DNA of 51,802 nucleotides, from sequence record NC_031050.1. One strand, written 5' to 3'. Of the stretch, positions 4,414-44,735 are shown in pieces. Made by a program: the position numbers and the translations under genes. The DNA comes from Escherichia phage vB_EcoS_NBD2. Numbering within the stretch: position 1 is the first letter of the stretch; each line of letters starts with the position of its first letter. The notes under the pieces are model-generated. The model had not been told where the DNA came from and ran no database searches. It worked only from the letters and a program-made list of their open reading frames with translations.

Positions 4414-5004
4414 ATGACTATTCAACGATACACAATGCGAAGTGTAAATGGAGAGCCTGAAATGGTGGCTCACGGCGCAGGGGCGTATGTAACCTACGCA
4501 TCACACGCCGAAGAATTGCTCCGCGTACAGGGCGAATTAGACGCCTTAAAAGACGGCTTAAAACGTCAAATTTTCGCGCCACTTGAAAAAGCCATGATGA
4601 ATGCGCTTATTAAAACAGCAATGCAGGCAACGCATACCGTCTACACCGTCAACCCATGCGACAAGCTGACTTCCGAGCGAGTGCGTGAAATTATGGATGC
4701 CCAGATCGGAGCGGGGGTAATCAGCCTGGCGGAAGTTGAAGAGCGCGGTTTCGCAACTGGCGGATTTATGGCAATCCCAATAACACGACCAGATCCAGAA
4801 TCCCTGCTTTGCATCAAATCGGACGCCAAAAGCTTCAAGGCTGGAGAGTCTTACCAGTGCGAGGCCAACAAAGACGGCGCTTTGTTCGTAACGCAAGATG
4901 AATTCGTTTCCGATCTGAATGAAGATGATTACTGGCACGTCACGGACGGCGGCGCGTATTACATCGTCGAAACGATCGCGGGTAATGCCTACTTTAAGAA
5001 GTAG
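4414..5004 (+). CDS. hypothetical protein
   Basis: ORF 4372..5004 trimmed to ATG 4414 after RBS aacgagg; preceded by motif promoter. Confidence 0.55.
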   Translation: MTIQRYTMRSVNGEPEMVAHGAGAYVTYASHAEELLRVQGELDALKDGLKRQIFAPLEKAMMNALIKTAMQATHTVYTVNPCDKLTSERVREIMDAQIGAGVISLAEVEERGFATGGFMAIPITRPDPESLLCIKSDAKSFKAGESYQCEANKDGALFVTQDEFVSDLNEDDYWHVTDGGAYYIVETIAGNAYFKK

Positions 5005-5044
5005 CACTTTTTGTTAAACGGGCACGTGTGCTGACTGGTATCAT
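5002..5044 (+). promoter_or_regulatory. motif promoter (TAGCACtttTTGTTAAAC, 22 nt, TGgTATCAT)
   Basis: Motif 5002-5019, extended -10 5036-5044. Confidence 0.55.
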
Positions 5045-5075
5045 GTGCCCACACCAACCAAATGGAGAGGCACCA

Positions 5076-5705
5076 ATGAATGCACTTTACAGCCATATCA
5101 AGCGCCACATTGAGCAGCGCCCGAACAAGCCAGTTTTCATCTTTGACTTTGACGGCACCTTGTCTGACGGATCGCACCGCCTGGACAGACTGCCAACCGA
5201 AAACCTTCACCTTACTGAATCATGGCAGGAGTTTAACGAGCTTTCGGCATTTGATGCGCCGTTTGAGGACACCATTCAGGTGATGAAGGCTTGTTATCAA
5301 TTCGGCACCGTCATTATTTTGACAGGCCGCAGCGATTCGGTGCTTAATCTTTCCGTTCAATGGTTGCTTGACAATGACGCTGATTATTATGATTTCCTGG
5401 TGATGCGCGAGGCAACCGATAACCGAAAAGACACGATCATCAAAGAAGAGTTTTTGCGCTTCATTGGACTTCATCGCATTACCGCCGCCTGGGATGATAG
5501 CCCGAAAGTTATCGAGCATTTCCGAGGCCTGGGCATCACAACTTATCAGGTTTGCGACTACGGCGACAACGTTCACGCTGGCTTGAAGTCTCACGGAGTA
5601 AGCGAGCTTAAGGCGGAGTGCGATCACATCTGGGAGCGTCACAGCACTGGTGACGATTATTATGATTGCTGCGTCAGTTGCGGCAAATCGAAGGGGATTA
5701 AATAA
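5076..5705 (+). CDS. HAD-superfamily phosphatase (nucleotidase or polynucleotide 3-prime-phosphatase-like)
   Basis: HAD motif I FIFDFDGTL near N-terminus; ORF 5028..5705 trimmed to ATG 5076 after RBS ggagagg. Confidence 0.6.
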   Translation: MNALYSHIKRHIEQRPNKPVFIFDFDGTLSDGSHRLDRLPTENLHLTESWQEFNELSAFDAPFEDTIQVMKACYQFGTVIILTGRSDSVLNLSVQWLLDNDADYYDFLVMREATDNRKDTIIKEEFLRFIGLHRITAAWDDSPKVIEHFRGLGITTYQVCDYGDNVHAGLKSHGVSELKAECDHIWERHSTGDDYYDCCVSCGKSKGIK

Positions 5706-5707
5706 CA

Positions 5708-6325
5708 ATGGCAACCATCATCATTTTGAACGCGCCACCGCGCGCGGGTAAAGACACGATCGCGAGCATTATCAATGAGCAATACGGCTTGCAGGTTGTG
5801 AGCTTTAAAACGCAGATGTTCAACATCGCTCGCGCCATCCTGGGCGGCGCTGATTTCGAAAACCCATTCATGCGGGTTTACAATACCGACGAGAAAGACA
5901 CGCGCAAGCTTGATTGCCTGGGAGGGATGACTTGCCGCGAGTTCATGATCTGGATTAGCGAAACCATCGTGAAACCGAAGTTCGGGAAAAAGCATTTCGG
6001 CTGGCTTATGGCTGACCTTCTCACCGAAATGGAAGCAGATCAGGATCTGACGATTTGCAGCGATGGCGGATTCCCTGACGAAGTGGAGGCGCTTATTGAT
6101 TGCGGTCACAAAGTCAAGCTGGTACGTATGCACCGTGAAGGCTTCGACTTCGGCAATGATAGCCGCGATTACATTAATCTTTCGCCGGAGTATCTCGCGA
6201 AGCCTGGCGTTGAGGTTATGGATCTTAAGTTGCAGCACGGCTCGCCGCAAGATGCAGCCGATACGATCGCCGCAATGTTCGTGCGCCCTCATCATGTCGA
6301 TTGGTCTGATGATATTCCCTGGTAA
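5708..6325 (+). CDS. deoxynucleoside monophosphate kinase-like P-loop kinase
   Basis: N-terminal P-loop NAPPRAGKDT resembling the T4 gene 1 dNMP kinase P-loop (SGKDT); 2 nt after the phosphatase stop. Confidence 0.55.
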   Translation: MATIIILNAPPRAGKDTIASIINEQYGLQVVSFKTQMFNIARAILGGADFENPFMRVYNTDEKDTRKLDCLGGMTCREFMIWISETIVKPKFGKKHFGWLMADLLTEMEADQDLTICSDGGFPDEVEALIDCGHKVKLVRMHREGFDFGNDSRDYINLSPEYLAKPGVEVMDLKLQHGSPQDAADTIAAMFVRPHHVDWSDDIPW

Positions 6326-6326
6326 A

Positions 6327-6369
6327 TAGCACTTTTTGTTAAACCCTCTTCGGAGGGTTTTGTTATAGT
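6327..6369 (+). promoter_or_regulatory. motif promoter overlapping a terminator hairpin (22 nt, TATAGT)
   Basis: Motif 6327-6344, hairpin CCCTC-ttcg-GAGGG 6344-6357, -10 6364-6369. Confidence 0.55.
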
Positions 6370-6400
6370 TACTCCATCGAAACGAAACGGAGCGACGGAA

Positions 6401-6625
6401 ATGATTAAGTCAATCAAAGTTAAGTGCATCAAGTCAACTGGCGGCGCATTCATGAAAGGCCAGATCTACAACGCAAGCATGAGTGATGGGGATTGGTGCG
6501 TTAAAGGGGTTGATGATTACAGCTACACAACGTTACGCGGAATGTGGGGAACTATCTACTATTGCAGCCTTGACCGCAAAGTAAGATTCACCTTTGAACC
6601 AGTAGAAAAAGAGGATTTAGAATAA
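6401..6625 (+). CDS. hypothetical protein
   Basis: 74-aa ORF, RBS ggagcgacggaa, preceded by motif promoter. Confidence 0.5.
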   Translation: MIKSIKVKCIKSTGGAFMKGQIYNASMSDGDWCVKGVDDYSYTTLRGMWGTIYYCSLDRKVRFTFEPVEKEDLE

Positions 6626-6915
6626 TGTCTATGAACGCAATCGCAAATATCACCGTTGACCTGAAAGCAAAGATTCAGTACACGATCCCAGAATCCGGCA
6701 CTTTCCTTTTCGCATGGGCTTACCGCGATCAGCCGTTCGCCGCTACTTATCAATGGCGCTCTGGTGAGCTTGCCGTGATGACGGATTCAGGTTACGAGAT
6801 CGCAGGAGTTGGCGCAGCGGAAGAGTATTACCCGCTTCCAGATCTCAATCGCATCGTTGCTGGCGAAGATACCGCATCAAAATTCATCGCTATCGTGGTG
6901 ATCGATGCAGCATGA
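6625..6915 (+). CDS. hypothetical protein
   Basis: 96-aa ORF, start overlapping upstream stop. Confidence 0.5.
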   Translation: MSMNAIANITVDLKAKIQYTIPESGTFLFAWAYRDQPFAATYQWRSGELAVMTDSGYEIAGVGAAEEYYPLPDLNRIVAGEDTASKFIAIVVIDAA

Positions 6916-7183
6916 AAAGGCCAACATTTCACGAAGCAATGATTATTGCTTTACTTATGCTTACGAGCGCGGCGGCATTACGCGCAATCTTATTCTTCGC
7001 ATTCATACAGGGCGCAAAATGAAAACTTTCCTGATCTTCATGGCTGGCTCAATCATGCTGACAGCAACAACCGAAGGCGTAACGCCGTTAATCGCAGGCG
7101 GCCTTATCGCCTGGGCTTATTACCGCTGCGGGCACGATGACGGATTCAAGGCCGGAAAGCGAAACATCTTAACTGGCAAATAG
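6905..7183 (+). CDS. hypothetical protein, possibly membrane
   Basis: 92-aa ORF with hydrophobic C-terminal half; start uncertain (alternative ATG about 7019). Confidence 0.35.
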   Translation: MQHEKANISRSNDYCFTYAYERGGITRNLILRIHTGRKMKTFLIFMAGSIMLTATTEGVTPLIAGGLIAWAYYRCGHDDGFKAGKRNILTGK

Positions 7184-7223
7184 CACGATTTGTTAAAAGG
7201 GCATTCATCCTGATTGGTATAAT
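7181..7223 (+). promoter_or_regulatory. motif promoter (TAGCACgatTTGTTAAAAG, 22 nt, TGgTATAAT)
   Basis: Motif 7181-7199, extended -10 7215-7223. Confidence 0.6.
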
Positions 7224-9423: not shown

Positions 9424-9511
9424 GGAAGGATGGCAGAGAGGACGATTGCGCGCGGTTGCTAACCGTGAAGCCGGAAACGGCTCAAGGGTTCGAATCCCTT
9501 TCTTTCCACCA
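9424..9511 (+). tRNA. tRNA-Ser (anticodon GCU), class II with long variable arm, CCA encoded
   Basis: Hand-folded cloverleaf: acceptor GGAAGGA/TCTTTCC (one G-U), U8, D-stem GCAG/TTGC, anticodon stem CGCGG/CCGTG, loop TTGCTAA (U33, GCT, A37), variable arm GCCG-gaaa-CGGC, T-arm AAGGG-TTCGAAT-CCCTT, discriminator A, CCA. Confidence 0.8.
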
Positions 9512-32335: not shown

Positions 32336-32403
32336 CACTAAAAGCTAAACAAAAAGAGGCTCATACGGTATAATGAGCCTCAATCAAACAAACAAAGAAG
32401 GTA

Positions 32404-37505: not shown

Positions 37506-37547
37506 TAGCACTTTTTGTTAAACATTCTATTCGATAGCGTGTATTAT
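37506..37547 (+). promoter_or_regulatory. motif promoter (TAGCACtttTTGTTAAAC, 21 nt, TATTAT) in divergent intergenic region
   Basis: Motif 37506-37523, -10 37542-37547. Confidence 0.5.
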
Positions 37548-41108: not shown

Positions 41109-41148
41109 CACTAATTGCTAAACATACCCGCCGCCGTGCGGGTATAAT
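41106..41148 (+). promoter_or_regulatory. motif promoter (TAGCACtaaTTGCTAAAC, 22 nt, TATAAT)
   Basis: Motif 41106-41123, -10 41143-41148. Confidence 0.6.
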
Positions 41149-41179: not shown

Positions 41180-41434
41180 ATGAAACGCACTTTCGATTAC
41201 TCAAAAACCGTTAGCACCTACAATTTCACAGAGTCACGCGGCAAAATCTTGATGCCTCACCTTCTGCGCCTGGCGCAATCATGCGCGCGTGAATCAATCG
41301 CCCTGGGTGATAATGGAGGGCTTGACGAGGCGATCGCGGTTGTTTATCTTCGCGCCGCATATGGTCATGAACCAGTTGGCACGCTTGAGCAAATGGCTAC
41401 GGCCTTCAACCTGCATGACGGCACATTATGTTAA
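41180..41434 (+). CDS. hypothetical protein
   Basis: 84-aa ORF, RBS ggagcag, preceded by motif promoter. Confidence 0.5.
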   Translation: MKRTFDYSKTVSTYNFTESRGKILMPHLLRLAQSCARESIALGDNGGLDEAIAVVYLRAAYGHEPVGTLEQMATAFNLHDGTLC

Positions 41435-41664
41435 TCGTTGAGCAGGGCAAGCGAGCCGTTTGGGAGCACATGAAAGAAGCTGGAATGGGCGATGATATCG
41501 CCCTGATCGCCAAATACTTCGACATTAAAGATGTGTGCCTAATCTACAACGGCAAGATGACTTTCATCGAAGAGAGGCCGCGCAAGTCAAACAGGATCGC
41601 AGTTGCAACGCAGCCATCGAAATCACTGGCGGAATATCTGAAAGACGCACGAGGCAAGAAATGA
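41428..41664 (+). CDS. hypothetical protein
   Basis: 78-aa ORF overlapping neighbours. Confidence 0.45.
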   Translation: MLIVEQGKRAVWEHMKEAGMGDDIALIAKYFDIKDVCLIYNGKMTFIEERPRKSNRIAVATQPSKSLAEYLKDARGKK

Positions 41665-41918
41665 ACTTACCAGGCTTGAACTTTGACCCCTTCCAGTATG
41701 CAGAGGTTGAGCGCATAACGGATGGTGATTACAGAAAAATCCCTTTCTCTGATTGGTTGCCGCCTGATTTTGAAGATGTGCTTTGCTCGCGCGGAGGAGG
41801 CTATAAGTTGATGTATTTCAGCCCCGCCACTGGTATGATGGCTACGGCTGAAACAGAAACGGCTGGCGAGTTTATCAACCCGAAAGATCTTGATCACTGG
41901 TTGAAAAAGGTAGCATGA
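41661..41918 (+). CDS. hypothetical protein
   Basis: ORF 41535..41918 trimmed to ATG 41661 (ATGA overlap). Confidence 0.4.
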   Translation: MNLPGLNFDPFQYAEVERITDGDYRKIPFSDWLPPDFEDVLCSRGGGYKLMYFSPATGMMATAETETAGEFINPKDLDHWLKKVA

Positions 41919-41989
41919 AACTAATTTTAGCTATAGTATTGCCTCCCGTAATCGGTTTTATTTTAATGTACTTTATTGTTATGTAAGGA

Positions 41990-43147
41990 TTGAAAATGCA
42001 ACGCAAAATTTCAGATGAGCAGTTAATCGCAGAGCGAGAATCAGGCAAAACACAGCGCCAGATCGCGGAAGAGTACGGCATGAATCAGCGCACAGTTGAG
42101 CAGCGTTGCGCACGCCTGGCGAAGAAAGGCCACGGGCACGGTAACAGCACTGTTAGCCGCCATGTGCCGGACGGGTTCGCAGTAAAGGGCACGTCAACCA
42201 TGATTCGCGCGAATGGCGAAGAGGTGATCCGATGGGTTAAGACCGATCAGGATCGCGAGAAGTTAGCAGCCATGATGGATGCGGCTATTGATGCGTTTTG
42301 CGAAGAGTTGCCGCGAGCAGCAGCACAGCCAGCCCCACTGGTTCACAACTGGAAAGAAGATCAGCTTGCTCTTTATCCGGTCTTTGACCTGCACATTGGC
42401 GCTATGGCTCATAAGCACGAGTGCGGCGAAAACTACAGCACTGACATTTCAGAAAAGGTGCTGGGAGACTTCTTCAACTACGCCGTAAACGTAGCGCCGG
42501 AAGCGAAAAAAGCAGTTCTGTTAATCGGCGGTGACTTCCTTCACTCTGACGGCCTGGACGCTGTAACACCTGCAAGCGGTCACGTTCTCGATCAGGACTC
42601 ACGCTACGCTAAACTTGTGCATGTTGCGATCCGCTCCACTCGCCGCGCAGTTGCAAAAATGCTGGACAAGCACGCAGAGGTTGAGATCCAGATCATCGAG
42701 GGGAACCATGACCAGGCGGGCATGATTTGGCTTCGTGCTGCAATGGCTGCATTCTATGAAGATGAGCCGCGCGTCACCGTTGACGTTAGCCCAATGATTC
42801 TGCACCGGACGAAGTGGGGCAAAACGCTGTTAGGATACACTCACGGGCACACGATGAAGAAAGCAGAAACGCGCCTTGCGGCGATGGCTACGGACTTCCG
42901 CGAAGAGTTCGGCACCAGCAAATACATTTACACCCACTCTGGGCACTGGCACCACCAGACGATCACAGAGGGCACTTTAGGGATTGATGAAGTGCATGGG
43001 CAGTTAGGCGCAAAAGATGCCTACGCAGCGCGCGGCGGCTGGCGCTCATATCGTCAAGCGGCGGTGATCGTCTACTCAAAAGAGTTTGGCGAAATCGGGC
43101 GTTTCGTGTATCGTCCAGAAATGGCAGGAAATAGCACGAAAAGCTAA
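41990..43147 (+). CDS. HTH domain fused to calcineurin-like metallophosphoesterase
   Basis: N-terminal HTH-like ESGKTQRQIAEEYGMNQRTVEQ; metallophosphatase motifs DLHIG, GGDFLHSDG, EGNHD, HGH, GHWHH in order. Confidence 0.6.
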   Translation: MKMQRKISDEQLIAERESGKTQRQIAEEYGMNQRTVEQRCARLAKKGHGHGNSTVSRHVPDGFAVKGTSTMIRANGEEVIRWVKTDQDREKLAAMMDAAIDAFCEELPRAAAQPAPLVHNWKEDQLALYPVFDLHIGAMAHKHECGENYSTDISEKVLGDFFNYAVNVAPEAKKAVLLIGGDFLHSDGLDAVTPASGHVLDQDSRYAKLVHVAIRSTRRAVAKMLDKHAEVEIQIIEGNHDQAGMIWLRAAMAAFYEDEPRVTVDVSPMILHRTKWGKTLLGYTHGHTMKKAETRLAAMATDFREEFGTSKYIYTHSGHWHHQTITEGTLGIDEVHGQLGAKDAYAARGGWRSYRQAAVIVYSKEFGEIGRFVYRPEMAGNSTKS

Positions 43148-43174
43148 ACAATTGCCGGAGTAATCCGGCATACT
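43132..43174 (+). promoter_or_regulatory. motif promoter, degenerate (TAGCACgaaAAGCTAAAC, 22 nt, CATACT)
   Basis: Motif 43132-43149, -10 43169-43174. Confidence 0.45.
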
Positions 43175-43204
43175 CCAGCTATACCAACCAAAGAGGAAAA
43201 CATT

Positions 43205-43312
43205 ATGAAAAAGTTTGTTTTAGGCTACGTAATCCCTTTCGTTCTGGGCGCTGTAGTCACCGCCGCTTTACTTTCCGTCATTCACCTGGCATCAAATTTT
43301 AAAGGGTTCTAA
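43205..43312 (+). CDS. small hydrophobic peptide (35 aa)
   Basis: ATG 43205 after RBS agaggaaaa and motif promoter; one predicted TM helix; below ORF-track cutoff. Confidence 0.4.
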   Translation: MKKFVLGYVIPFVLGAVVTAALLSVIHLASNFKGF

Positions 43313-43313
43313 A

Positions 43314-43490
43314 ATGAAAGTTCGCTGCATTCGGAATGATTCAAAATCACTGCCTTACTATGTCGGAGCAGTATATCGCGCGGTTGATATCGGCGGTATG
43401 TATGAGATCCGCGATGGTCAAGGCTCCGCAATTCACGCGCCGCTTGAAGGTCACTATCTTGAATTTATTCCGATAGAAGAAAAGAAATAG
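43314..43490 (+). CDS. hypothetical small protein (58 aa)
   Basis: ATG 43314 one nt after previous stop; followed by terminator; below ORF-track cutoff. Confidence 0.35.
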   Translation: MKVRCIRNDSKSLPYYVGAVYRAVDIGGMYEIRDGQGSAIHAPLEGHYLEFIPIEEKK

Positions 43491-43534: not shown

Positions 43535-43615
43535 GTGCTTCTCGTTTGTCAAAAAGTGCTGTATTATTGGCCTTACTTAATTAAATCATTGACAACTATT
43601 TCAAAGGGGGATCTC

Positions 43616-43831
43616 ATGCGCGAGGTCATTAACGCTATCACTTCCGGCGCTGGCGGCGCTACATTCACCGGAGTTGCAACGGGGCAGCTAGCCATTGCGT
43701 TCGCAACCTTCGTATTTTTCGTCCTGTTTGGCTTCTGGGGCGCATACTGGAAATACAAAGACAGCAAGGCTATCCGCCAGGCCATTGACGCAGGCGACTT
43801 GCAAACGGCGCTAAAAATCAGGGGTAAATGA
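43616..43831 (+). CDS. holin
   Basis: ORF 43535..43831 trimmed to ATG 43616 after RBS aaaggggga; 71 aa with central hydrophobic helix and charged C-terminus; directly upstream of endolysin. Confidence 0.55.
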
Positions 43832-44319
43832 CGATGAAGAAGATCGCAAGCATGGCATTTGGCGCAGCGCTTGCCGCAACGGTTCCGTTAATCGAAAAGT
43901 TTGAGGATGTCAAATACGATGTTTATTACGATATCGCTGGCATCCCTACTGTGTGCGCAGGCATCACAGGATCAGACGTTATCATTGGTAAGCGGTACAC
44001 GAAGCGCGAGTGTGACGCATTGCTAATGAAGCATTTAGCGGTTGCGAAGGCGGAAGTTGACAAGCAAATCAAAGTTGATGTGCCGGACTCTTTCCGCGCG
44101 GCAATGTACAGCTTCACCTACAACGCAGGCACGGGCGCTTATCGTAAATCAACCATGCTGAAACTCACCAACGCTGGCGATCTCAAGGGCGCGTGTAATC
44201 AGTTGTGGTCATGGGTTTACTTCTACAACCCGAAAACGGGCAAAAAAGAGAAGTCGAAAGGCCTTAAAAATCGCCGTGGCTTCGAATATGAATATTGCAT
44301 GAAGGATCTGAAAAAATGA
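43828..44319 (+). CDS. endolysin, T4-lysozyme-like with N-terminal signal-anchor-release (SAR) segment
   Basis: Weakly hydrophobic Ala/Gly-rich N-terminus followed by E...D...T catalytic pattern ([21 protein letters not shown]). Confidence 0.65.
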
Positions 44320-44735
44320 AAAGGCTTTACAAATTAATCAAGTGGATTTTCATCGGGTTAAGCGCAATTGTCATTTGTGGTTGTTCGGCAACGTCTGCCC
44401 TGACTGGTTTAATCGGCAGCAAGCCAGAAATCAGCGCGCAGGCTGGCGCGGAAAACACGAAACAGACGGTTGGGATCAATGGCAAGGTTGACCAATCCAG
44501 CGAGGTTGAGACAACCATCAAAGATTCAACCGTTGGCAAGGTTGACACGTCTAACGGAAAGAAAACCAGCGCCTCAAGCATAACGGCTGACACCATCAAG
44601 GCCGATAAGATTGAGATCAGGAATCAGGAAGGCGGCGATGTTGCCGGATGGATTGCGCTATCTGGCGTTGTTGGTCTGTTTATTTTGCTGGGCGCGTCTG
44701 CGCTACGGAAACGACGATATGAGAAAGGAGCCTAA
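44316..44735 (+). CDS. unimolecular spanin (T1 gp11-like)
   Basis: N-terminal signal with Cys-containing lipobox-like region (IVICGC) and a single C-terminal TM helix. Confidence 0.55.

Follow-up and report, generated by a model that had tools for sequence, protein, structure and literature searches.

A helix-turn-helix metallophosphoesterase upstream of the lysis cassette of Escherichia phage vB_EcoS_NBD2: a persistent gene of T1-like phages and a candidate DNA nuclease

The genome of Escherichia phage vB_EcoS_NBD2 (Vilniusvirus, Drexlerviridae; NC_031050.1), whose full stretch of 51,802 nucleotides (nt) is referred to here as the window, carries just ahead of its lysis genes an uninterrupted open reading frame (ORF) on the + strand, at 41990..43147, that encodes an N-terminal helix-turn-helix (HTH) joined to a calcineurin-like metallophosphoesterase (MPE) domain. 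Klebsiella phage vB_KaeD_HazelMika, likewise a Vilniusvirus, shares 98% identity with the window, whose coordinates correspond to those of HazelMika plus 9818. The MPE gene is real, and the ORF proposed for it in an earlier note on this DNA has been retained, although the product is not the 385 amino acids (aa) given there: the TTG codon at 41990 follows the Shine-Dalgarno sequence AAGGA without any gap, while the ATG at 41996 comes 6 nt after it and has been annotated as the start in HazelMika. ATG 41996 is thus the better start and the protein therefore comprises 383 aa, which is the form used for all residue numbers below. The coordinates of the gene, its domains and its neighbours are collected in Table 1.

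The catalytic part of the protein contains the motifs DxH, GDxxD/H, GNHD, HGH and GHxH in exactly the order that had been described from the letters alone, and an alignment of 116 homologues sharing 35-92% identity with the query protein (alignment A3) has shown D131, H133, D180, H183, N237, H238, D239, H283 and H319 to be invariant. As all metal ligands are unchanged throughout these homologues, a catalytically active enzyme is predicted. In total, 22 columns of A3 are invariant, and beyond the metal ligands of the motifs they include W80, G135, H183, D185, T191, R203, R259 and D341. The Pfam model for the superfamily (PF00149, Metallophos) has matched the query with 14.3 bits against a gathering cut-off of 21.5 (E = 0.057), hence below threshold, and is matched at E <= 0.01 by just 12 of the 116 homologues. 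This score is that of a divergent family lying outside the Pfam model, and is no argument against membership of the MPE superfamily.

The HTH-like segment at the N-terminus has likewise been borne out. AlphaFold2 (AF2) places three helices at aa 7-15, 20-26 and 31-43, and although the query itself matches Pfam HTH_24, HTH_23, HTH_28 and Sigma70_r4_2 only below threshold (aa 13-45), HTH_1 is recognised in 52 and HTH_50 in 28 of the 116 homologues at E <= 0.01, so that the domain is clear at the level of the family, even if its sequence is the least conserved part of the MPE family. It is followed by a module of two strands (aa 61-70 and 76-85) and a helix (aa 87-102) with a conserved PxGxxVKGxST...WVKT signature. 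In three homologues (P0133, P0159 and P0207; alignment A2, columns about 150-290) the hairpin motif between HTH and MPE domain, 'PxGxxxKxxST...G...W.K', has been found duplicated.

The fold itself is certain within the limits of a predicted model. A first AF2 model, built on close homologues only, was mediocre (predicted local distance difference test, pLDDT, 73) and has been superseded by a model based on A3 with a pLDDT of 89.2 and a predicted template-modelling score (pTM) of 0.76. Its layout comprises the three-helix HTH, the beta-hairpin and helix (aa 61-102), a linker and the MPE sandwich (aa 120-377), in which the beta-alpha-beta-alpha-beta double sheet of the superfamily is present; the model has no further C-terminal domain after the sandwich. 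Structure prediction with a subsequent fold search, which the earlier note had proposed as a check alongside profile searches, has thereby recovered the MPE fold, and the highest structure comparison values were obtained for the exonuclease subunit PolD-DP1 (14.5, 217 residues aligned), Thermotoga Mre11 (14.5) and SbcD (14.4), followed by MJ0936 (13.6), LpxH (12.9), other Mre11 structures (12.4-12.9) and Rv0805 (12.1). The PPP phosphatases PP5 and calcineurin have reached 8.5-8.7. Foldseek ranks Mre11 highest (E = 3e-8), and Rv0805 and GpdQ come shortly after it. A search of the PDB sequences with the single sequence gave no match; with the family profile, Mre11/SbcD were the sole MPEs matched, with DxHxG and GDxxH aligned, at E values of 0.3-5 (best 0.31) that are not significant, and a match of the HTH to GerE was not significant either. 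Within the MPE fold, the nuclease subclass is favoured.

Table 1. Coordinates of the HTH-MPE gene, its domains and motifs, and associated features in the window.
Feature	Coordinates	Strand	Basis or remark
HTH-MPE coding sequence, 383 aa + stop; T1 ST16 orthologue, phrog_704 member	41996..43147	+	ORF; HazelMika start; phrog_704 E = 3e-155; 99.7% identity to HazelMika protein
Shine-Dalgarno AAGGA, 6 nt upstream of ATG 41996	41985..41989	+	direct sequence reading
N-terminal three-helix HTH, aa 5-45	42008..42130	+	AF2 helices; sub-threshold Pfam; family-level HTH_1/HTH_50/Sigma70_r4; GerE profile match
Beta-hairpin + helix module, aa 58-102, PxGxxVKGxST...WVKT, W80 invariant	42167..42301	+	AF2; alignments A2/A3
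MPE catalytic domain, aa 120-377	42353..43126	+	
Motif I, D131-L-H133-I-G135	42386..42400	+	sequence; D, H, G invariant
Motif II, G179-D180-F-L-H183-S-D185, Mre11-like GDxxH	42530..42550	+	sequence; D180, H183, D185 invariant; aligned to Mre11 'GDLLH'
Motif III, G236-N237-H238-D239	42701..42712	+	sequence; invariant
Motif IV, H283-G284-H285	42842..42850	+	sequence; H283, G284 invariant
Motif V, G316-H317-W-H319	42941..42952	+	sequence; G316, H319 invariant, H317 kept in >90%
GC-rich hairpin just past MPE stop codon, without T-run on + strand	43153..43179	.	sequence
Nearest upstream promoter-like site, TAAACA-N18-TATAAT	41119..41148	+	consensus match only
Holin, endolysin, spanin cassette; conserved MPE neighbour in Drexlerviridae	43556..44735	+	ORFs; HazelMika annotation; PMC13164509
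Pnkp-type HAD phosphatase (phrog_415, Pfam HAD_PNKP)	5076..5705	+	directly downstream of MPE in other lineages, unlinked here
dNMP-kinase-like P-loop protein (phrog_139)	5708..6325	+	third gene of MPE-HAD-kinase string in other lineages

The gene is already known and annotated, and nothing in the window is new beyond public annotation. Its product shares 99.7% identity with HazelMika gp38, 'putative phosphoesterase' (UGO53128), belongs to phrog_704, 'DNA repair exonuclease' (E = 3.1e-155, aa 3-377 against profile positions 2-389 of 390), and has an orthologue in ST16 of phage T1 at the same map position upstream of the lysis cassette; with respect to all three, it is a plain member that differs in nothing of substance. 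The name 'DNA repair exonuclease' is a family label derived from homology. By tblastn, the family has been detected in 2,043 of 50,697 phage records, ranging over Drexlerviridae, Guernseyvirinae, Dhillonvirus, Casjensviridae-type Rhodobacter phages, and phages of Vibrio, Ruegeria and Flavobacterium, while an exhaustive phmmer search has returned 4,689 cluster representatives (clustering at 50% identity), of which 980 reach E <= 1e-30, with lengths of mostly 360-440 aa among the 150 matches listed. Within Drexlerviridae, 508 of 522 genomes carry it as a persistent gene (PMC13164509). Given these 508 genomes and 2,043 records, it is a known persistent gene and no oddity, and for T1-like phages, T1 itself included, the view that such a fusion falls outside the standard functions of a phage is wrong. 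Among the PADLOC models of defence systems, no family was matched at E <= 1, and NCBIfam has given nothing or motif-level matches only.

In the window, the MPE gene closes a co-directional block of helicase, VRR-NUC-like endonuclease, Dam methylase and four small ORFs. Downstream of it, a 35-aa hydrophobic ORF (43205-43312, +) and a gene for a 58-aa DUF7244 protein (43314-43490, +; Pfam E = 4e-29) precede the holin, endolysin and spanin genes. DUF7244 has been described as a standalone SH3-like component of the lysis module (PMC13164509). Elsewhere the surroundings vary. Linkage was counted in two separate sets of 80 loci, the second of which is environmental and was searched over +/-6 kb. In 26 of the 80 loci of the first set, the next gene after the MPE gene is a co-directional orthologue of the Pnkp-type HAD phosphatase, often overlapping it by 4 nt, and the one after that resembles genes for deoxynucleoside monophosphate (dNMP) kinases; the lineages with this string are Webervirus, Kagunavirus and related IMG/VR contigs. 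In the window the pair lies far from the MPE gene (Table 1), and its T1 counterparts, ST64 and ST62, are likewise unlinked to it. According to the paper on KanT1, the genes most often located behind the 'exonuclease' are those for polynucleotide kinase and dNMP kinase. Universal partnership of the two enzymes with the MPE protein is ruled out by the 26 of 80 and 0 of 80 loci in the two sets and by their narrower taxonomic ranges. Among 22 divergent IMG/VR clusters, recurrence is loose only (lysis genes in about 7 clusters, terminase genes in 2). Across divergent lineages, lysis and terminase genes are the sole recurring neighbours; in Dhillonvirus and RcExplorer the MPE gene comes after the lysis genes, not before them.

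Further arrangements have been noted in Guernseyvirinae and in prophages. In the Guernseyvirinae (loci L003 and L004, around 4750-7200; Kagunavirus and Jerseyvirus-like), the MPE gene is part of a short opposite-strand island within the tail-gene block. The island encodes a small membrane protein ahead of the MPE and, behind it, an HNH endonuclease in some cases or the HAD phosphatase with the kinase in others. In a prophage of the Agrobacterium fabrum chromosome (L170, 10001-14221), it is followed by Tad2-like, HD-domain, DNMK-like kinase and AbiJ_NTD4 genes, which places a bona fide DNMK near the MPE gene. In a Paraburkholderia prophage (L172, 5234-13695), it is flanked on one side by a region with NinG and on the other by the terminase and portal genes.

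The earlier note had also credited the gene with a promoter of its own, which has not been substantiated: the + strand of the 77-nt spacer (41919-41995) has yielded no sigma-70-like site, and the nearest promoter-like site lies ~850 nt upstream of the gene, ahead of the four small ORFs. It is the probable start of a transcript with these ORFs followed by the MPE gene, as far as a consensus match can indicate. Between 37 and 45 kb, 12 promoter-like sites were observed against 7.3 +/- 2.7 expected. The form TAAACA-N17/18-TAxxAT has been found on the + strand at 32346-32374, 37519-37547 and 41119-41148 (3 occurrences against 0.25 expected), with a gene start just downstream of the sites at 37519 and 41119, and a GC-rich hairpin at 41124-41145 overlaps the last of these. 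At the place equivalent to the hairpin behind the MPE stop codon, phage T1 has an annotated terminator. Rfam and tRNA scans have given no match in the region of the MPE gene; the sole tRNA gene found, a tRNA-Ser with the anticodon GCT (9424-9511, +), stands a few hundred bases upstream of the gene for the small terminase subunit. In its longest form, the ORF at 41535-41918 (+) overlaps the preceding gene (41428-41664), and its real start is probably ATG 41661, since phrog_4596 matches aa 43-126 only.

Regarding the function of the enzyme, one comparison is with the Mre11/SbcD group. The likeness resides in the histidine of motif II, where GDFLH with its invariant H183 aligns to the 'GDLLH' of Thermotoga Mre11; the difference is that the phage protein has an N-terminal HTH and hairpin module instead, and that the sequence similarity is not significant (E >= 0.3). 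The small subunit DP1 of archaeal PolD, the other close structural neighbour, is a 3'-5' proofreading exonuclease. The identity to DP1 amounts to 12%, the phage has neither an annotated DP2 subunit nor an annotated polymerase, and no equivalent of the OB-fold was recognised in its MPE protein, which begins with HTH and hairpin. The class III phosphodiesterases (Rv0805, CpdA) and GpdQ differ from the family by its HTH and its invariant motif II histidine, neither of which, to our knowledge, occurs in class III cyclic-nucleotide phosphodiesterases or GpdQ, and no contextual link of the MPE gene to signalling was found in this comparison. Lambda NinI, the PPP-family phosphatases and the MPE domain of CthPnkp have been considered as a group that likewise includes phage-encoded MPEs, and NinI, encoded in the nin region directly ahead of the late genes, occupies a map position comparable to that of the MPE gene (compare the Paraburkholderia prophage). 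A PPP-type protein phosphatase of the NinI kind is ruled out by the motifs, which lack the GDxVDRG and GNHE signatures, and by structure.

A further comparison is offered by phage T5, for whose degradation of host DNA the predicted metallophosphatase A1 is both required and sufficient, with the DNA-binding A2 and the dNMPase Dmp as partners (bioRxiv 10.64898/2026.04.02.716235). By analogy, the present family may follow the same logic, in which an MPE nuclease of the phage is combined with a DNA-binding HTH and a nucleotide phosphatase of the HAD type. T5 A1 differs by its length of 556 aa, by another motif II and by being encoded by a pre-early gene, whereas the MPE gene stands at the end of a replication operon. 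A1 homologues outside Demerecviridae (P0461-P0503, from non-T5-like contigs of about 45-50 kb) are about 530 aa long and carry an N-terminal HTH, matched by Pfam HTH_23, HTH_38, HTH_7 and CENP-B_N. As these homologues are HTH-MPE fusions too, the design recurs in phages, and it appears, judging by profile comparisons, to have arisen in two families without detectable relationship. No specific homology to T5 A1, A2 or Dmp has been detected, and because profile-profile comparison shows none, the parallel is one of architecture only.

Taking these features together, we infer that the substrate is DNA and the chemistry that of a nuclease, and we estimate the probability that the MPE protein cleaves polymeric nucleic acid at roughly 60%. 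The HTH across the family, the invariant metal ligands, the Mre11-like motifs I (DxHxG) and II (GDxxH), the best structural neighbours PolD-DP1, Mre11 and SbcD, the position of the gene behind helicase, VRR-NUC-like endonuclease and Dam, and the T5 precedent argue for a DNA nuclease. Accounting for motifs, neighbours and DNA-metabolism context, a DNA-targeted nuclease is the best supported entry among the functions that the earlier note had listed. One may postulate that the enzyme is anchored to duplex DNA by its HTH, perhaps with help from the conserved beta-hairpin module, and that there the Mre11/SbcD/DP1-like domain with its dinuclear, probably Mn2+, centre would hydrolyse phosphodiester bonds and release 5'-nucleotides. 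On the premise that T1-like phages encode neither a DNA polymerase nor genes for nucleotide synthesis, the enzyme may degrade the host chromosome or clear DNA ends, thereby feeding nucleotide salvage, with the Pnkp-type HAD phosphatase and the dNMP kinase acting downstream of it, and would functionally parallel the pair formed by the T5 nuclease A1 and DNA-binding A2. The linkage of HAD_PNKP and dNMP-kinase genes to the MPE gene in 26 of 80 loci points to this role, and host-DNA breakdown with nucleotide salvage is tentatively put forward as the most likely role. That the protein is the very nuclease by which T1 degrades host DNA, resembling T5 A1 and A2 in a single chain and heading a salvage line of nuclease, HAD phosphatase and dNMP kinase, is rather doubtful, but more probable than the DNA-tethered immune-signal phosphodiesterase discussed below.

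Several results weigh against this interpretation, some of them against the nuclease and others against the salvage role. The protein is without the C-terminal capping domain of Mre11, since the chain ends 64 aa past motif V, and no Rad50/SbcC gene is annotated in the near-identical genome, where all unannotated ORFs are below 230 aa; the two large ATPases of the phage are helicases, not Rad50/SbcC. Comparing A3 by hhalign with T5 A1 gave a probability of 13% over 19 columns, covering motif III only, and with an alignment of 50 A1 sequences 19%, in the HTH region only. In the 80 environmental loci, no HAD or dNMP-kinase gene was found within the range searched, and among Salmonella phages the pair is rare, with 43 records for the HAD phosphatase and 39 for the kinase versus 373 with the MPE gene. 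The family is also found in integrated, lambdoid-like prophages, in which wholesale destruction of host DNA is unexpected. Finally, our survey of the literature on the phrog_704 family has found no biochemical, genetic, functional or escape-mutant data.

The presence in temperate phages leads to the alternative that survives best, in which the same HTH-tethered, Mre11/DP1-like chemistry is directed at the phage's own DNA. The enzyme would then trim or open ends, flaps and hairpins in recombination-dependent replication, in the processing of concatemers or in preparation for headful packaging, either together with the phage RecE-like exonuclease, Erf, SSB and helicases or as a 3'-5' editing exonuclease acting in trans. 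In temperate carriers, an action on phage DNA is more credible than destruction of the host genome; it also suits the status of a core gene with a function in the life cycle, and it agrees with structural neighbours that are end-processing and proofreading nucleases. The position of the gene at the boundary between replication and lysis or terminase genes in Drexlerviridae, Dhillonvirus and RcExplorer, and two genes upstream of TerL in the Paraburkholderia prophage, is consistent with it as well. The missing Rad50-like ATPase and capping domain speak against this proposal too, RecE-like and VRR-NUC nucleases are already encoded by the phage, and no conserved partner gene has been found across lineages; altogether it is rather unlikely.

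The HAD phosphatase has suggested another possibility, an end-healing enzyme with 2',3'-cyclic phosphodiesterase and 3'-phosphatase activities like those of the MPE domain of Clostridium thermocellum Pnkp or of the lambda phosphatase, which together with the HAD phosphatase and the kinase would repair tRNA, RNA or DNA nicks left by defence nucleases of the host. The gene downstream of the MPE in several lineages is indeed a homologue of the Pnkp phosphatase, scoring above the threshold of Pfam HAD_PNKP and with T4 pseT among its tblastn matches, and MPEs with 2',3'-cyclic phosphodiesterase activity are known (PMC2190708). The P-loop partner, however, belongs to the dNMP kinases (phrog_139; Pfam DNMK in relatives) and not to the polynucleotide kinases, the near-identical genome has no annotated ligase gene, a second phosphatase would be redundant beside the HAD enzyme, and the HTH points to duplex DNA, which makes end healing improbable.

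A comparably small probability is assigned to an anti-defence phosphodiesterase that destroys nucleotide immune signals such as cyclic di- or trinucleotides, cyclic nucleoside monophosphates or ADP-ribose-derived molecules. The opposite-strand island within the tail genes of Guernseyvirinae and the Tad2-like gene adjoining the MPE gene in the Agrobacterium prophage would fit such an activity. Known anti-CBASS and anti-Pycsar enzymes have other folds, Acb1 being a 2H phosphoesterase and Apyc1 having a metallo-beta-lactamase fold. The idea of a second-messenger-degrading enzyme, raised in the earlier note, has gained no specific support: a DNA-binding HTH is kept throughout the family, the gene is a core and not an accessory gene of Drexlerviridae, the invariant motif II histidine is Mre11-like, no link has been found in the literature, and the class III phosphodiesterases are generic fold matches only. 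Its narrower form, in which a phosphodiesterase of the calcineurin type is tethered to DNA and degrades either a nucleotide immune signal or some small immune molecule made of nucleic acid, is very improbable; if true, it would be the first anti-defence enzyme of the MPE fold and a core counter-defence of T1-like phages.

Least of all do we expect a transcription regulator, for instance of late or lysis genes, in which the HTH does the main work and the MPE domain is sensory or accessory, since, for all that the HTH is of the sigma-70 region 4, LuxR or LysR type, that the gene recurs directly upstream of lysis or terminase genes, the place of Q in lambdoid phages, and that a Q-like gene is its downstream neighbour in 6 loci, selection has acted on the catalytic residues and active-site loops with the HTH least conserved, and in Dhillonvirus and RcExplorer the gene follows the lysis genes.

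The gene for this proposed DNA nuclease belongs to the small set that persists throughout Drexlerviridae, whose T1-like members serve in phage therapy and are known as laboratory contaminants. Its family is present in ~4% of sequenced phages from several phage families and has borne no more than a homology-based label since the T1 genome of 2004. If the enzyme dismantles host DNA, the source of precursors would be explained for phages that have no polymerase and no nucleotide-synthesis genes of their own, and the MPE protein would be a likely source of the m6dAMP-type danger signals that are sensed by newly described defences (Metis and similar).

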